From NCBI GenBank assembly GCA_963575745.1, contig CAUYUJ010000115.1, forward strand, positions 186,001-250,000: 64,000 nt of DNA. Direction: 5' to 3'. A program made the translations under genes and the position numbers. Source of the stretch: Prorocentrum cordatum (lineage: Eukaryota). Position 1 is the first letter of the stretch. The number at the start of each line of letters is the position of its first letter. This document shows positions 1 through 55,179 of the stretch, piece by piece. Below the pieces are notes generated by a model. It saw only the letters and a program-made list of their open reading frames with translations. It made no database searches and had not been told where the DNA came from.

Positions 1-503
1 TTGGGCCGTCTTGGGGGAGTCTGGGGCCGTCCTGGGCGCCTCCTGGGAGCCTCTGGGGGCCGCCTGGGGGCCGTGTTGGGCGCCTCTTGGGTCTCTGGAC
101 GCTCTCGCGGGCCTGTTTTCGTGCCTCTGGGGGGCCTCTTGGGCCGTCTTGGGGCGGTCGTGGGGGCCTCTTGTCCCATCTTTTGCGCCATACTCCCGAC
201 AAGCAGTGCGTGCTAAAATTTGATGTTTTTCGTTGGAAAAACAATGATTTGATCCTGGGACGCCTCTTGAGCGTCTCTGGGGCCGTCGTGGAGGCCTCCT
301 GGGCCTTGTCGGGACCGTTTTCGGCGGTCTGGAGCTCTCTTGGAGCGCTCTTGGGCCGTTTTTGGGGTGTCTGGGGCCGTCCTGGGCGCCTCTGGGGCCG
401 CGTGAGCGCCTCTGGGGCGTCCCTGGAGCCGTTGTGGGGCATTTTTCGCCCATCAAGACAGGGACCCTTCCCGCACGCACGGGTCCCTGCATTGTAGAGA
501 AGA
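1..503 (-). mobile_element. Helitron-like element E19 (runs off the window)
   Basis: Left end TCTTCTCTACAATGCAGGG directly after the CTAG of E18. Confidence 0.65.
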
Positions 504-1185
504 CTAGGGCTGACCTGTGGACTCCGTCCACGACATCTTTCTGTAATGGTTCTCGGAGGAACGGCGGAGATTTTGCCGAAGGCCAATAAGCACGGCGGCG
601 GCCGGGGCGGAGGCAGCCAAACTGAAGTCTCACGGGGATGTGCGTCAAAATTGAAGCCCATCTGAGGCGTCTCGTGAGCGCCTGGGGAAGGGCTCGGGAG
701 GCCCTCGGGGAAAGCCACCGGGAGCGCCGGGGAGTCTTGCCAGGATCTCTTCGGGCGCTTTTGGGCCATCTTGGAACCCTTTTGGCCCGTCTAGGACCTC
801 TCTTGGAAGTTTGAGGCACTAGGAGCCGTCTGGAGCAGTTCTTGGGGCGAAGTTGGGAGATCCTGAGAGTCAGTCAACGACTATGGGAAATCTTCGATTC
901 GGGCATCGTGGGGCCGTCAGTCATCCAGGTCCTCTTGGCCGTCTTGGAGGGCCTCCTGGCTCGCGTTGGGGCCGTCTTGGGCCATTCTGAGGCTCGCTTC
1001 GGGCTCTCTGGGACCACCTGGGCTTGGGCCGTCGTTGGACGTCCTGGAGCCTTCCAGCGGCCGTCCAGCGCCGTCCGGGGTCGCCCCAGGGGCACCGGGT
1101 CGCCCCTGGAGCGCCGGGAGCCGCCCCGGCCTGCTGCCGCTGCAGCGCCATCTCGCGCGCGCGGGCCCGAGCTTGGTGGTACAGG
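504..1185 (-). mobile_element. Helitron-like element E18
   Basis: Left end gtcA^CCTGTACCAC; right end GTGGAC-GGA-GTCCAC-aggtcagccCTAG. Confidence 0.75.
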
Positions 1186-46748
<45,563 letters not shown>

Positions 46749-47557
46749 CTGTGAGATCTGACGCCGAAGCCAAGATACACCATCATTAATAATCACAACA
46801 ATCGAGCATTTATTCGCGGCGATCATGGACGTTATGGGGGTGGGAGAGGAGGTATGGCGGAGGGGGCATAACGCAACGCCCCCGCCGTGTGGGTCCAGAC
46901 TGTGGAGTTGAACGCAATGCGGCAGTACCAGGGACGTATTGGGGGGGGCGTTGCGTTAGGGGGTGGGGGAGGGGAGGGGAGAAGGGCAGAACGCGCGTTA
47001 TTGCCCAAAGGGTAAAAAAAACAATCTCAAAAACCCTCGGCCCAATCTTTCCGCGGCACTTCTCGAGCCGGATCGACCCGTGAGAGCCGCGGCCTCCAAA
47101 ACGGAGCGAAAGCGCCAGGTGTGCCAAAAAAGTCGACACCCCAATTTCAGGGTCCTTCCTTATTCCCTGAGTCAACAACAGGAGTGCAATGTCCGAAGGT
47201 CCGCGCGGGTTTCCTGAATCGGCGCAGGACACCCCTGCCCTGGCGCGAGGAGCGCGCCAGAGGCGGCACAAGAAGCGCCGCCAGGGGGATCCAGCGCAGA
47301 TCCAAGAGATCCGCGCGGTCATTCCAACATTGCGTTTCTGCGCAATCGATCTGTATATATGGCGGATTTCGGAGACCCTGAACCCAAACAAGTTTTCATC
47401 GATTGGGAGATCGACTTGTTACTTCCGCCGCCTTCCGCAAGCCTTCCGCCGCCTCCCGCCGCTCTTCGGCCGCCTTCCGCCGCGGAAGAGATGACAGCTC
47501 CTCTATCCTCGAAGGCAAGGCGTGTGTGTTTTTTGTCTCTGGGACACCTCATACGTG

Positions 47558-47950
47558 TATATATGAATGTATGCATGTATGTTTGTGTGTATGTTTGTTT
47601 GCATGCATGTATGCATGTATCCATGCATGTGTGCCTGCATGCCTGCATGCATGCATGCATGCACGCCTGCTTGTATGTATGTATGTATGTATGTATGGAT
47701 GGTTGGATGGATGGATGGATGGATGGATGGATGGATTGATGGATGGATGACTGTATGCCTGTACGTATGTATGTCTGTGTGTATGTATGTATGTGTGTAT
47801 GTAGTTATGTACGTATGTACGTATGTACGTATGTACGTATGTACGTATGTACGTATTTATGTATGTATGTATGTATGTATGTAGGTAGGTAGGTAGGTAG
47901 GTAGGTAGGTAGGTAGGTCTGGATGGATGGATGGATGGACGGATGTATGC
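47558..47950. repeat. Mixed ATGT/GCAT/GGAT/AGGT tetranucleotide tract
   Basis: Direct reading. Confidence 0.9.
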
Positions 47951-48764
47951 ATGTGTGTGTCTTCGTCGATTCTCCTGGTCCGGGGGAGGGGCAGGGGGCC
48001 CGCCAATGGGGAGGAGAGACCGTGATCTCGGGCGACCGTCCGCCCTTTTGCTGCGGGGGCTCCCGGCGCTCCCACACTGGAGGCCCGGCGGCCCCCGCCT
48101 CCAATGGGCACTAACACCAGAACAGTCCTCCTCCTCCTCCTCCTCCTCCTCCTCCTCCTCCTCCTCGTCCTCCCCGTCTCCCTCTCCCTCCCCCCCCCTC
48201 CTCCTCCTCAGGGGGGTGCGCCCACCGGGTGAGGATGGTCCTAGATTTCGGTGCTGGTGGTAATCCTTCTGCCACCCTGGAAGCCCGAATCTGACCACCA
48301 TCGGGATCCTCTTCCCTCGGTTTGAGGCGCACACCGCCGGTATTGGTGTTGGCGTCCATCTCTAGGCCTCGTTTCTGGCTTCCTGGAATTCGGAGGCAAC
48401 TCCTGGGAGGCCTTCGTGGGAGCGCCCAAGGGCTACAAAGCCAGGTCCGGAAGGATTTGAATCATACTAAGACAGATTAGGCCCAGGAATAAAACCAGGG
48501 TGAACTAAATTCCGCTGGCTCGAGCAGGATTGGGCCGGGGTAGGACGGCCCGTGGATCTGCAGGTACGACATACCTGTTCGTGACAGAAGGTTTGGGGGG
48601 TGATGCTATCTTTGATTTGCACTGAACGCACAATTCAACTCACGAGTGGACACACTTCGGGGCATCAAGATTAATGTTCATCAATATATCAATGTATGTG
48701 AATGTATGTGTGTGTGTGTGCGTCTGCCTGTCTGTCTGTCTGTCTGTTTGTCTGTCTATGTGTC

Positions 48765-48795
<31 letters not shown>

Positions 48796-48932
48796 GTCTG
48801 TCTATCTGTCTGTCTGTCTGTCTGTCTCTGTCTGTCAATGATTCACGTGTTCCTCTCATCTCGCTATAAAAATACGTGGGTACACATCTGTAGATATACA
48901 TATATACGATCTAACAACCGAACCACCAGGAC

Positions 48933-49745
48933 AACCATCGGGTCAACAATCGGACCAACTATCGGGACAACCAATCGGGAAAACCATCAGGACAACCATC
49001 GCGACAACCATCGGGACAACTATCGGGACAACCAACAGGACAACCGATCAGGCAACCATCGGGACAACCCGTCGGGACAAGCGTCGGGTCTACCGCTGGA
49101 ACAACCAACAGAACAACCATCGGGGAAACCCATCGGGACAACCATCGGGATATCCATCGGGACAACAGCCAGGATAACAATCAGGACGACCATCGGGACA
49201 AGCATCGGGCAACATGTGGAGAAAACCGTCGGGACAACCATCGGGACAACCATCGGGACAACCATCGGGACAACCAACAGGACAACCATGGGGACAACCG
49301 TGTGGACAGCTATCGGGACGACCATCGGGACAACCATCAGGGCTACCATCGGAACAACCAACAGGACAACCATCGGGACAACCCATCGGGACAACCATCG
49401 GGACAACCATCGGGATATCCATCGGGGTATCCATCGGGACAGCAACCCTGGGGACAACCATCGGGGCTCTGATCGGAACAACTGTCGGAACAAGCCATCG
49501 GGGCAAGTCATTGGGACAACCAACTGGATAACCATCGGGACATCGATCGGGACGGCCATCGGGGCAACCATCGGGACAACCATCGGGACAACCATCGGAA
49601 CAACCATCAGGACAACCATCGGACAACCATCGGGACAACAATGGGGACAACCAACAGGACAACCATGGGGACAACCATGTGGAAAGCTCTTGGGACACCC
49701 ATCGGAGCAACCATCGGGACAACCATCGGGATCACCATCGGAACA
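48933..49745. repeat. 12-bp (ACAACCATCGGG)n satellite
   Basis: Direct reading; second array at ~53727-53995. Confidence 0.9.
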
Positions 49746-50371
49746 CAAAAGCGAACATCTGAACAAACATGGATCATCCCTCCATCGGCCCCACGATCTA
49801 TCGACCTCACAATATATCGATATACCTGTCTCTCCATCTAATTACACTGATTTGCACATCTATGTAGTATCATGTATGTGTCTACACACGTCCACTATGA
49901 AAGTACCAGTGTCCTTAGGTCTTAGATAGCTTTCAATCCTGCTGCATTGGTTGTCCGTTGTTTATCAAAAAGGGGCTCTTGCGTTTACAATGGTTGTCGC
50001 CTGGCTTGTCATAACTGCTGCTGCTTCCGCATGGATTGCCAAACACGGTTGATCTGTTTCTGTCCCACAGGGCGCAGTTTCCGCATTCTGTCCGCACTGA
50101 GCATCTATACTGATTTCTCATGAGGGCAACTTTCCTATTACATACAGAAGACATGTGTGTATATCGATGTGTATATATGTAGATATCGGAGGCTGGGGGG
50201 TGAGATCGCAATGGAACGGAGATCCCCAACCCGGAAATCGCTTCGTTTCGTTAGTGTCGTGCGTGCGGGCGAGGCGAAGCTGCGTGGGCGCGCGAGAGGA
50301 ATGAACCCGCCGTTGCCAGGGCGAAGTCAAGACAAATTATTCTTCCCCGCCCGCCCGTCCGGCGGCGGCTC

Positions 50372-51627
50372 GCGGTGTCCCGCGGTGTCCCGTGGTGTCC
50401 CGTGGTGTCCGCCGTTGCTAGGGCGAGGTCAAGACAAATGATTATCCCTCGCCCGCCAGTCCGGCGGTGGCTCGCGGTGTCCCGCGGTGTCCCGTGGTGT
50501 CCCGTGGTGTCCCTTGTTGTCCACCGTTGCTAGGGCGAAATCAAGACAAATGATTCTCCCCCCGCCTGCCGCCCGTCCGTCCGTCCGTCCGGCGGTGGCT
50601 CGCGGTGTCCCGCGGCGTCCCGTGCTGTCCCGCGGTGTCCCGTGGTGTCCCGTAGAGTGAGATCGATAGTGAGATCGACACTGAGATCGATACTGAGACC
50701 GATACTGAGATCCATACTGAGATCGATGTGATGCCCCGAGGTGCCCCGTGGAGTCCCAAAAAGTGAGATCGATAGTGAGATCGATAGTGAGATCGACAGG
50801 TGTCCCGTGGTGTCCCGTGGTGTCCGTCCCGTGGAGTAAGATCGATAGTGAGATCGATAGTGAGATCGATACTGAGCTCGATGTGGTGTCCCGTGGTGTC
50901 CCGTGGTGTCCCGTGGTGTCCCAAAAAGTGAGGTCGATAGTGAGATCGATAGTGAGATCGACAGGTGTCTCGTGGTGTCCCGTGGTGTCCCGTTGAGAGA
51001 GATAGATAGTGAGATCGATAGTGAGATCGGTAGTTAGACCGATAGTGAGATCGAGACGTGTCCCGCGGTGTCCCGTGGTGTCCCGTTGAGTGAGATCGAT
51101 AGTGAGATCGGTAGTGAGATCGACAAGTGTCCCGTGGTGTCCCGTGGTGTCCCGTTGAGTAAGATCGATAGTGAGATCGATTGAGTCAGATGTTTGTTCC
51201 CCCCCTCTCCCCCCCCCACAACCTCCTGATCACCCGAAGGGTGGTCGTATAAGTAGGTATTTACATCGGAGGTGAGGGGGTGAGATCGAAATGGAACGGA
51301 GAGCCCCCCTACCCGAAAATCGGTTTCGGTTTCGTGTTCGTGCGTGCCGTGCGTGCGGGCGAGGCGAAGCTGCGTGGGCGGGCGAGAAGAAAGTCTCCTC
51401 CGGCTGAGGCGCGGCCAAACCAAATGATTCCTTTCCGGGGGCCGGCGGCCCGCGGTGTCCCGCCGGTGTCCCGCCTCCGGCTGAGGCGCGGCCGGACCAA
51501 ATGATTCCTTTCCGGGGGCCGGTGGCCCGCGGTGTCCCGCCGGTGTCCCGCCGGTGTCCCGTCGGTGTCCCGATGATGGTGATGATGATGATGATGATGA
51601 TAATGATGATGATGATGTTGATGATGT

Positions 51628-51665
<38 letters not shown>

Positions 51666-52558
51666 GTGATGGTGATGGTGATGATGATGGTGATGTTGAT
51701 GATCAGGATGATGATGTGGTGATGATGATGATTTCGATGATGGTGGCCCGATAATGGTGATGATGATGCTGATGTTGATGATGATGATGGTGTCCCGGTG
51801 ATGATGATGATGGTGATGATGATGGTTACGATGATGATGGTGTTCCGATGATGATGATGATGTTGATGCTGATGGTGCTGATGATGATGGTGTCCCGATG
51901 GTGATGACAATTGATAATGATGTTGATGATGCTGTTCATGATGATGATGAGATGATGATGATGATGCTGATGATGATGGTGTTCCGATGATGATGATGGT
52001 GATGATGATGTTGTCCCGGTGATGATGGTGATGTTGATGATGATGACGATGATGGTGTCCCAATGGTAATGATGTTGATGATGAGGATGATGGTGATGAG
52101 GTGATGATCATGATATTGATGATGGTGGCCCGATGATGGTGATGATGATGATGCTGATGATAATGATGACGATGGTGTCCCGGTGATGATGATGATGGTG
52201 ATGATGATGGTGACGATGATGATGATGTCCCGATGATGATGCTGATGATGATATTGATGATGATGTTGCTGGTGATGATGATGGTGTCCCGATGATGATG
52301 ATGTTGATGATGATGGTGTTGATGAGTATGATGATGGGATGATGATGATGGTGTTGTTCTGATGATGAAGATGGTGTCCCGATGATGATGATGATGATGA
52401 TGTTGGAGATGATGGTGACGATGATGGTGTCTCGATGCTGCTGATGATGGTGGTGATGATGATGGTATTGGTGATGATGGTGATAAGGTGGTGATGATGA
52501 TGGTGTCCCGATGATGATGATGATGATGTTGATGTTGAAGACGATGATGTTGATACGA

Positions 52559-52591
<33 letters not shown>

Positions 52592-53300
52592 CTGATGGTG
52601 ATGATGATGATGACGTTGATTGTGGGATCGATAGTGAGATCGATCGTGAGATCGATAGTGAGACCAAATGTGAGATCGATTGTGAGATCGATAGTGAGAT
52701 CGATAGTGAGATCAATTGTGAAATCGATAGTCAGATCGACTGTGAGATCGATCGAATGAAATAGATCGGGTGAGATCGATTGTGATATCGATCGAGTGAG
52801 ATCGATCGAGCTAGTCCGATAGTGAGATCGATAGTGAGATCGATAGTGAGACCGATCGAGTGAGACGTTGGTTCATCCCCCCCGAACCTCCTGATCACCC
52901 GAAGGGTGGTCGTATAGATGTCGAAGGCGAGGGGTTGAGATCGCATTGAGATGGAGAGCCCCCCACCGGGAATTTGTTTTCGGTTTCGTGTTCGTGTCGT
53001 GCGCGCGAGCGAGACGAAGCTGCGTGGGCGGGCGCGAGGCTCCTCTGGCTAGGGCGCCGCCAGGCCAAAAGACCGCCCCTCGTCGGGTTGTCTGGCGGTG
53101 GCCGCGGGAGTCCCGCCATGGTGTCCCGATGGCGTCCCGGGGTGTCACGTGGTGTCCCGTCACGCGGTCTCCCTTGGTGTCCCATGACGCGGTCGCCCGT
53201 GGTGTCCCGTGAGGTCGATAGTGAGATCAATAGCGAGATCGATCGAGTGAAATCGATTATGAGATCGATCGTGAGATCGATACTGAGATTTATACTGAGA
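50372..53300. repeat. Composite satellite region: (GTGTCCCGTG)n, (GAGATCGATAGT)n and (GAT)n (51572-52620)
   Basis: Direct reading; interleaved with a ~150-bp dispersed repeat at ~50195, 51275, 52930 and inverted at ~54060. Confidence 0.85.
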
Positions 53301-55179
53301 TTGACTGAATGAGACGTTGGTTCCGCCCCCCCCCCCGCACCTCCTGATCACCCGGAGGTATGTCGTATAGCATCGCAAACCTATTCTTTGTTATGGCCAC
53401 GCAGAGCATGTGTTTGCAGCGTCGCATCAGACAGCGAGACAGACAGAAGCCGCGCCCAGACGGCGCATTGGCATGGAAAGTTGTGGCAAGTGACGCCGTG
53501 CGGGCACAGGCAAAGAATGAATTCGGATGTGATTGCGCTGCCGGCGGCTCGGTTGATCACCATGGGAAGACTTTGTATCCCATGGGACGCGATGCGTCAA
53601 CCGGCGGACAATCCGGAGAGAGGGAGGGGGAAGGAGGGGGGAGGGAGCGGGAGGGAGGAGGGGGACAAAGGCAAAGATGCGCAGAGCACATATGTTTTGG
53701 CACCATGGCCTCGCAACTGCATCGAAACAACCATCGTGAAAACGATCGGGATAACCATCGGGGCAACCATCGGGACAACCCATCAATACAAACCTCGGGA
53801 CAAGCCTCGGAGCGTCCATCGGGACAGTCATCGGTATAACAATCGGGATAACCATCATGACAACCACCAGGACACCCATCGGGATAAGCATCGGGACAAC
53901 CATCATGACAACCATCGGTTCACCCATCGGAGCAACAATCAAGGCAACCATCGAGAAAACCATCAAGACAACCATCGCGACAACCTATCGGGACAAGCCC
54001 GCGCCACGGCCGCGGCGGGGGGCGACTCAGTTTTGTCTGACGGTGTCTCTAGAGGACGAACTCGCGCAGCTTCGCCCCGCCACGTCCGCACGCACATCAC
54101 GCACGACACGAACCGAAACCGAATCCGACTCCCCAGTTGGGGCACCTCACGTTTCACTTCGGTCTCACCCTCCCAACCTCCGACAGGCGACGATGCTGAA
54201 TTAAACATTCCACCCCTCAGGAAACACATCCGAACTCCCCCTGCTTCGGGGAGAGCAAGCGACCACAACCACATCGACGACACCCCCAGGGGAAAGTCTT
54301 GCGCATGCCACAAACTGCCAGATGTGGCGACCCAGGGCGGCCAAATGGACAACAACCACAACCCAAGTGCTCATGTCGACGTCGGTGAGTTCTCCCCCGA
54401 AGGGCCCTCCCGAAAAACCACTTCGTTGTGGTTGTGGTTCTTTGATCTGCCCGCATTAACATCTGGCGACTTGAACAACGAGATCGTGGCGGACCTTCGC
54501 CATGGTCGACGCCCTGGAGAGGCTGCGTCTGGGACTCTGGGGGCCGCGGGAAAGAACGGTTCGTCATGAGAGGCCCGCACGGAACGGGGGACTCGAGAAG
54601 TCAGGGGGGCCTGCGTCTCGGACACATCGACTCTCGATCCCTCCCTCCCTCCCAGACGCCCCCAGAAGACCTTGATGACCATTTTTGCTGTTAAGGAGAA
54701 GCAGAGCGACGACGAGGACGGAGACGACCTGTGAGGCCCTGGTAAATACGACGATGGCCGAGACGTTGACAGGACGGTCCGCTGGAACGTGCTGAGAGGC
54801 CCTGGCACTTCTCGACAGCAGCCGCCCCTCTGTGCCAAGGTCGTGTGCCTTGGCACGCGTGGTCTCAAAGCTCACTGCCGACGCGAGCCCAGAGGACCTC
54901 GAAACGGAAGAGCTCATACGTGTTCCGGAAGCCTACGATCAGCCCACCCCCGCTCCGCCCCTCAAGGTAGTCCGGGGCGGCCCACGGAGGGGCTCGCAGG
55001 TGAAGTCAAGTCGGGTCCGGGGCTGTTCAAGTCCGGTTGAGGGGTCCAGAGGCCGCTCGCTCCGCAAGCGGAGACGGAGGGCGTGAAAGCATACGGCAAG
55101 AAGACGCGCATGCAAGAGAAAGGGTGAATCGAATATCGATGTAAAACTCTACCTTACATCGTGCGTTCCACCACGTGTG

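Follow-up and report, generated by a model that had tools for sequence, protein, structure and literature searches.

Helitron-like elements in a PPR gene of Prorocentrum cordatum share their left end with the target site

A PPR-like module at the left end of the elements

The window analysed here is a 64,000-nt stretch of DNA from the dinoflagellate Prorocentrum cordatum (assembly GCA_963575745.1, contig CAUYUJ010000115.1, positions 186,001-250,000 of the forward strand), eukaryote-like in sequence and ~62% GC. We read the region from ~46.7 kb down to below 1 kb, at the window start, as one long pentatricopeptide repeat (PPR) gene on the minus strand, in which blocks of 105-base coding cassettes are separated by transposon-like elements. 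The left end of these elements consists of TC, a 4-base spacer and a stretch that reproduces, with divergence, the initial ~33 bases of the 105-base PPR repeat, and our sequence comparisons confirm this PPR-like module as a real, element-borne, non-coding terminal signal that is homologous to the target. It is proposed, at a probability of about one half, that these are non-autonomous Helitron-like elements that are targeted via the PPR-like left end and tolerated as introns; recognition, targeting and splicing are the parts that we infer.

Left ends were set by position, as the first base behind a cassette or behind an element right end (n=19), and were scored by alignment to the cassette start against 20,000 random 46-mers on the same strand; for 15 of the 19 the score is reached by at most 0.3% of the random sequences. 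An earlier, sequence-only reading of this stretch had reported matches to the target of 27/33 and 25/33 for the left ends of two elements, E19 and E11, together with the same resemblance at eight more positions. Both counts were reproduced, E19 differing from the target at 6 positions (minus strand, 497-465) and E11 at 8 (18120-18088), and the eight positions (46424, 43467, 41174, 37523, 12669, 7112, 3290 and 1185) are all left ends with scores that no more than 0.3% of random 46-mers attain; for the E19 left end, with a score of 16, the figure is 0.03%. When the 33-mer was searched for with a threshold of 9 mismatches or fewer, 21 matches were found, exclusively on the minus strand, against a mean of 0.00 in 100 dinucleotide-preserving shuffles, a likeness beyond that of GC-matched random sequence. 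The spacer had been given as 4-5 bases; it measures 4 in nearly all left ends (from TC to CTACAA), as against 2 (AG) in the cassettes. Exact copies of the target 33-mer lie at 3359-3391 and 13755-13787. The left ends at 45673, 21472 and 18892 and an orphan module at 42656 are additions to the earlier list. The left ends, and the right end upstream of E19, are as follows.

465-503, minus strand: E19 left end, TCTTCT (TC + TTCT) and the 33-base PPR-like module (497-465), directly behind the CTAG of another element
504-540, minus strand: right end upstream of E19, hairpin CGTGGAC-gga-GTCCAC, 12 bases, CTAG
1148-1185, minus strand: left end behind cassette 1186-1290, CCTGTACCACC...
3253-3290, minus strand: left end behind cassette 3291-3395, TATGCACTACAAC...
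7075-7112, minus strand: left end behind the triple cassette, TCTGTACTACAAGG...
10300-10337, minus strand: left end behind cassette 10338-10442, weak match to the cassette start
12632-12669, minus strand: stacked left end of the subfamily to which the cassette-adjacent element starting at 39287 belongs
13649-13686, minus strand: left end behind cassette 13687-13791
16028-16065, minus strand: left end beginning CAG|GTATAT (donor-like), match to the cassette start not significant
18089-18126, minus strand: E11 left end, stacked behind CTAG, 25/33 against the target
18855-18892, minus strand: stacked left end behind GTAG, weak match
21435-21472, minus strand: stacked left end, TCATCTCTACAC...
30083-30120, minus strand: left end behind cassette 30121-30225, TCTGCGATGCAC...
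34249-34286, minus strand: left end with a donor-like CAG|GTGTACC, no significant match to the cassette start
37486-37523, minus strand: stacked left end behind CTAG
39250-39287, minus strand: left end behind cassette 39288-39392
41137-41174, minus strand: stacked left end behind CTAG, top score of all
43430-43467, minus strand: stacked left end behind CTAG
45636-45673, minus strand: stacked left end behind CGAG
46387-46424, minus strand: left end directly behind the divergent first PPR exon

The sequence-only reading had proposed asking whether conservation of the module follows codon position or a binding-site pattern, and the comparison favours a binding site. Identity at codon positions 1-3 is nearly equal (0.61, 0.63 and 0.66), which indicates that the conservation is not coding, and it is arranged in blocks: identity to the cassette consensus is 0.79 over CTACAA, 0.50 over the next 11 bases and 0.76 over GCGCGTGCGAGAAGG, and falls past about base 38 to 0.33, the background level. 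Among the left ends themselves, ungapped pairwise identity runs 0.62, 0.46 and 0.49 and then 0.28-0.32 past about base 38; it was used here in place of gapped identity, which over the first 240 bases of the elements stands at ~0.58 throughout in this GC-rich DNA. The module makes up nearly all of the conserved left terminus and lies directly 3' of the expected nick site of a rolling-circle transposase. No hairpin is common to the left ends; E19 alone has one (z = -3.1).

Aligned together with the 13 cassettes, each of the 19 left ends, and the orphan module as well, shows a leader that exceeds theirs by 2 bases (TCTNTN before CTACAA, against TCAG in every cassette); this longer leader is a shared derived state of the left ends. 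The elements starting at 12669, which is stacked, and at 39287, which lies behind a cassette, are colinear from base 1 (70% identity over ~520 bases, then 79% over 743), while their upstream flanks are unrelated. The possibility that each left end is a decayed host cassette is ruled out by these observations: decay in place would fade over all 105 bases, against which the sharp stop at about base 38 speaks, and the longer leader, this stop and the differing contexts of the colinear pair together point to one element-borne module. A cassette split by insertion of an element at its base 38 was likewise rejected, none of the 19 right ends resembling the cassette tail. The orphan module (42618-42656) matches the target at 27/33 positions, lacks the TC leader and sits inside another element.

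Termini, junctions and bodies of the elements

The elements are ~0.7-4 kb each and separate the cassette blocks in head-to-tail groups of one to four. Only the 38-base left end and ~35 bases at the right end are conserved across subfamilies, at similar levels, and such confinement of conservation to the ends is the usual signature of cis-acting transposon termini. The 5' terminus is TC in 14 of the 19 left ends (TT, TA, CC and, twice, GG in the others). The 3' terminus is CTAG in 8/19 and CTGG in 1/19, with mostly one-base variants otherwise and a final AG in 15/19; it is partly decayed because the copies are old, identity between related elements being 70-80%. The right end is laid out as the hairpin CGTGGAC-gga-GTCCACG or a variant of it, 11-13 bases and then CTAG. 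Counted by eye in the alignment, the stem CGTGGA...TCCACG stands 11-13 bases before the end in ~15 of the 19 right ends, and in the one at 37551 it has changed on both sides (GTGGAT/ATCCAC). One right end (43760-43815) has a perfect hairpin and ends in CCTAC, followed by the cassette-tail-like CGACGTCGCC and then by sequence unlike PPR; a deletion may have occurred there.

Insertion takes place between A and T of GACGTCA|TCAGCTACAAC, without duplication. The junction after a cassette reads GACGTCA|TC... and that before a cassette ...CTAG|TCAGCTAC; an A flanks the 5' side at 9 of 10 cassette junctions and a T stands behind all 19 right ends. When the flanks GACGTCA| and |TCAGCTAC are rejoined, the product has exactly the sequence found at the three boundaries without an element (34391, 7217 and 7322), so that nothing was duplicated or lost at insertion. 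At nine element-to-element junctions (CTAG|TC...) there is no host DNA in between. Cassettes, element ends and PPR exon are all on the minus strand, the elements occur only between cassettes or in head-to-tail stacks, and none was found outside the gene (17 kb of the window) or in the opposite orientation. No Pfam match to a Rep/HUH or helicase domain was obtained in the 41 largest of the 117 open reading frames (ORFs) of at least 200 residues, and the elements are named Helitron-like and non-autonomous on this ground.

Instead of repeated transposition, a few intron-like insertions might have been spread by unequal crossing-over or gene conversion along the array and between paralogues, with the likeness of the left ends helping recombination. 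The cassettes at every site are 71-90% identical to one another, which would make ectopic conversion feasible, neighbours in the 46-39 kb stack are related (~75% over 500-600 bases), and the N-terminal exon and the cassettes form a multi-copy gene family. However, differing boundaries hold differing subfamilies that have only their termini in common, related elements have different neighbours on either side, and cassette similarity does not track the type of the flanking element; moreover, the junctions are base-exact at TC and CTAG, and a conserved terminal hairpin is typical of a transposase signal. Spread by recombination is regarded as improbable.

Satellites make up most of the element bodies; among them are a 10-base unit and a 375-base unit present three times at 97% identity. 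The latter is a higher-order unit of the 10-base CGTCTTGGGC satellite inside one element (39867-40995), and its 97% identity makes it much younger than the 70-80% seen between elements. Tandem units of 179 bases (3463-4646) and 328 bases (13880-14030) fill the 3' part of two related elements, each unit carrying a small hairpin GTGGCG-tca-CTCCAC or its complement. The DNA run X1, which consists of short contigs, was compared with positions 1-10900 of the window. The 10-base satellite (1-364, 2185-2912 and 8009-8372) reaches a word depth of ~4,000-20,000 in X1, against ~2-5 for apparently single-copy sequence, and must rank among the most abundant sequences of that genome; cassettes and element ends also have very high depth there, and no clean empty site or informative joint was found in X1 over positions 1-10900.

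Site use, splicing and a model of targeting

Behind the right ends, only a cassette start or a resident left end is found at 18 of the 19 junctions. The same holds for contig L001 (1.3 kb), the one match when a metagenome was scanned for the element right end, with CTAG|TCAC and then three cassettes behind the same right end; in this gene and this contig, the only places where copies were seen, every copy is tied to PPR repeats. Ten of the 13 downstream cassette boundaries are occupied and three are empty. An internal site of the cassette, A|TCAGCGCG at its bases 17-18, shares A|TCAGC with the target and is occupied in 0/13; there are no half cassettes in the window. Occupied targets appear closer to the consensus than empty ones (Mann-Whitney p = 0.019, n = 10 vs 3), a sample too small to carry weight, and L001 has a perfect target that is empty. 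At 640-700 of L001, a second right-end hairpin breaks off after GTCCA, where the 10-base satellite takes over at once, as though by an insertion into the hairpin or immediately behind it.

We propose that the rolling-circle transposase of the family recognises the sequence 3' of its nick to start transposition, and that in single-stranded target DNA it would cut a sequence resembling this one at the corresponding position. On this view the elements could land both at the start of a cassette and at a left end already in place, so that they would always enter at one site and in one orientation and would build up stacks. A single origin of the module, from the start of a PPR cassette, is the most likely. 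The sequence-only reading had put forward recognition of the left end by an HUH transposase, and the anatomy fits this idea (module at the nick, site use, non-coding blocks), recognition by the transposase being what we infer. Its alternative, that the left end was born from a PPR motif, accommodates the homology equally well and is compatible with recognition; the further suggestion that the cassettes are mobilised with the elements found no sign in the cassette identities (71-90%), which show no pairing with the flanking subfamilies. Going one step further, a single recognition event might be both origin and address, the transposase nicking wherever it sees its own left end, a tentative proposal about which we are doubtful. 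If it were true, the target choice of a rolling-circle transposon would be encoded in cis, would evolve by exchange of the left end and could be re-addressed, and site-specific Helitron lineages in general would be explained; with a coding repeat as the address and ends that double as splice sites, the element would be a motif-specific introner.

Element starts that adjoin an exon are distinct from stacked ones: 10 of 11 exon-adjacent starts carry GT or GC at element bases 4-5 (or GT at bases 2-3), against 1 of 9 stacked starts (Fisher p = 0.0009). A T|GT or T|GC donor with the terminal AG| as acceptor leaves TCT behind, giving ATC TTC AGC (Ile-Phe-Ser); the two starts that read CAG|GT pair with TCAG|C instead. 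Read from the junctions, frame-keeping donor-acceptor pairs stand at the element termini in 6 of 10 intervals. With splice sites (T|GT ... AG|) at their ends the elements probably act as introns; splicing there would remove all but TCT, adding one Phe codon, and the insertions would thereby be tolerated. The P. cordatum genome has a mean intron length of 4.7 kb, donors GT, GC and GA, and 79.7% AGG acceptors, and Helitrons go unmentioned in the main text of the genome paper (PMC10666404). PPR gene models of this species hold PDVIFS-type junctions, and their motif spacing is 36 in eight cases against 35 in 34; models with frame-shifted cassette translations also exist, however, which makes these junctions weak support. 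Among the public models (P0121-P0128 and P0072) are stretches reading LQRWDQRVREG and ATTLGSARARRASSGSG, which are the cassette in two wrong frames, and many models of the family therefore look mis-spliced.

Several observations weigh against targeting through the left end and tolerance as introns. Good targets are unoccupied in L001 and in the window; four of the 19 left ends (34286, 16065, 10337 and 18892) are no longer significantly PPR-like, the module at 42656 has no right end before it, and the sequence behind the right end at 43786 is unlike PPR. The distance from nick to CTACAA is 6 bases in left ends and 4 in cassettes, so recognition cannot be a rigid ruler. The age of the copies (70-80% identity) leaves no sign of recent movement. 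No frame-keeping pair exists at 46424, 39287 and 13686, and 20230 is doubtful; the proposed acceptors lack the following G that is prevalent in this genome (PMC10666404). Finally, the site restriction could stem from selection on a coding gene and not from a choice made by the enzyme.

The last point leads to an explanation in which the left end is a relic of the birth of the family (for example by 5' extension from a cassette boundary) that is kept because some left end is needed in cis, without any targeting role, the fixed site being due to selection for in-frame splicing. Homology alone cannot separate origin from function, the ends are donor- and acceptor-like with the donor enriched beside exons, and the cassettes, of 105 bases with neither indels nor stops in 13/13, suggest coding constraint; the empty good targets in L001 and in the window agree with this as well. 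Yet an element entering at the internal A|TCAGCGCG site would likewise leave no more than an in-frame TCT, and that site is used in 0/13 against 10/13 for the boundary. The nine stack junctions lie inside introns, beyond the reach of selection on the frame, and still present a right end followed by a PPR-like module, and the 17 kb beyond the gene hold no element, nor does any run in the reverse orientation. We consider a relic without a targeting role rather unlikely, and targeting via the PPR-like left end remains our preferred reading.

The host gene and its surroundings

The window contains 13 cassettes of 105 bases, each coding for a 35-residue PPR motif of the type SYNAGISACEKGEQWQRALALL...EPDVI, in frame and free of indels and stops in 13/13, which suggests coding constraint; variation is 0.246 at the third codon position against 0.185 and 0.161 at the other two. 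They are P-type PPR motifs, PF13041, PF01535 and PF13812 all scoring above the Pfam cut-offs in ORF 33721-34755. The closest proteins are PPR proteins of P. cordatum at ~70% identity, none of them identical, and none of 120 PPR relatives matches a window cassette exactly (best, 95% over 21 residues). The coding features are as follows.

1186-1290, minus strand: PPR cassette, 105 bases, open frame
3291-3395, minus strand: PPR cassette containing the exact 33-base target
7113-7427, minus strand: three adjoining PPR cassettes, inner boundaries 7217 and 7322 being unoccupied targets
10338-10442, minus strand: PPR cassette
13687-13791, minus strand: PPR cassette containing the exact 33-base target
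16066-16170, minus strand: PPR cassette
20231-20335, minus strand: PPR cassette, followed by only 10 bases of the next cassette and then by unrelated sequence
30121-30225, minus strand: PPR cassette with an ordinary-looking ...ttctcag acceptor upstream, hairpin absent
34287-34496, minus strand: two adjoining PPR cassettes with Pfam PPR matches, boundary 34391 unoccupied
39288-39392, minus strand: PPR cassette
46423-46671, minus strand: PPR gene, probable first exon with an ATG and a pair of divergent PPR motifs

The first exon runs in frame into the PPR repeat pattern. It is multi-copy, being related to the N-termini of 11 P. cordatum PPR models at 46-73% identity, ten of them at 60-73%.

It might be asked whether there is a separate host target at all, since the cassettes could be long left ends and the whole 46 kb a stack of elements, some of which carry 1-3 PPR units as cargo. 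An element right end stands directly before every cassette block except that at 30225, the junction is followed by TC at the cassette start just as at an element start, and very high depth is reached in X1 by cassettes as well as element ends. But the cassettes have an exact length and open frames in 13/13 with somewhat more third-position variation, unlike the element bodies; the array opens with a divergent, ATG-led PPR exon in frame with the repeat pattern; and the relatedness of cassettes is independent of the element downstream. We judge cargo to be very improbable. Co-duplication of a cassette together with its element received no support from the cassette identities.

Beyond the PPR gene, at 47500-54000 of the window, GC drops to 52-56% and micro- and minisatellites dominate, including TGTA x100, a 12-base AACCATCGGGAC array and GAT x ~350; no element of the family occurs in this part.

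Comparison with known systems

The bacterial HUH transposons IS200/IS605 and IS91 move as single strands, in an orientation-specific manner, to a place beside a short target that is related to the end of their own that the enzyme reads. Mention of them is made in the Replitron paper (PMC10288648). Their targets are 4-5 bases long and are read through a subterminal hairpin guide; in the window elements, by contrast, the shared sequence is 38 bases and there is no shared hairpin. Target choice by Helitrons is poorly understood, site-specific lineages having only now been described with no rule that leads from sequence to site, and a left end that copies the target sequence on the side of the nick is a concrete targeting hypothesis that can be tested with short oligonucleotides. 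It further suggests how a transposon could settle in a coding repeat array without destroying it, bringing its own splice sites and adding one codon, and it bears on the origin of the many long introns in dinoflagellate genes. No description of PPR-targeted Helitrons or of a target-copying left end was found in the literature searched.

Helitron-derived introners (Gozashti et al. 2025, PMC12130899) and site-specific telomeric Helitrons (Arnaiz et al. 2026, PMC13085455) are already published. The former, ~1% of classified introner families, resemble the window elements in their rolling-circle type, the absence of duplications and, probably, their position in genes as introns; the example given there, a Suillus family, goes into TT or TC, however, and has no link to one particular coding motif (PMC12130899). 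The text available of that report describes neither a dinoflagellate Helitron introner nor a target-like left end, and Prorocentrum is named 0 times in its main text. The Helitrons of Paramecium aurelia telomeres are, like the elements described here, site-specific, in one orientation and flanked by the target repeat, with satellite bodies between conserved ends; their target is a non-coding telomere repeat, whereas in P. cordatum the target is a coding repeat and the element may be spliced out, and a target-copying left end is not mentioned for them in the accessible part of the report (PMC13085455).

In anatomy the window elements resemble Helraiser and canonical Helitron1-type elements, which have 5' TC, 3' CTAG and a hairpin ~11-12 bases before the end (Grabundzija et al. 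2016, PMC4778049). Helraiser also shares with the window elements A/T insertion without duplication, ~40 conserved bases per end and the CTAG|TC head-to-tail junction; its determinants of precise end cleavage lie inside the terminal 40 bp, its left end is essential, and it is nicked between the flanking A and TC and inserted at A|T (PMC4778049). The two differ in that no RepHel partner was seen in the scanned ORFs of the window and in that Helraiser lands at AT dinucleotides in AT-rich DNA genome-wide, whereas all copies seen here adjoin one GC-rich 38-base sequence homologous to the left end. Beyond AT, Helraiser shows its greatest target preference on the 3' side of the insertion (PMC4778049). 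In the P. cordatum elements this 3' flank is the homologue of the first 38 bases of the element itself, and the simplest reading would be that the same sequence is recognised in donor and target.
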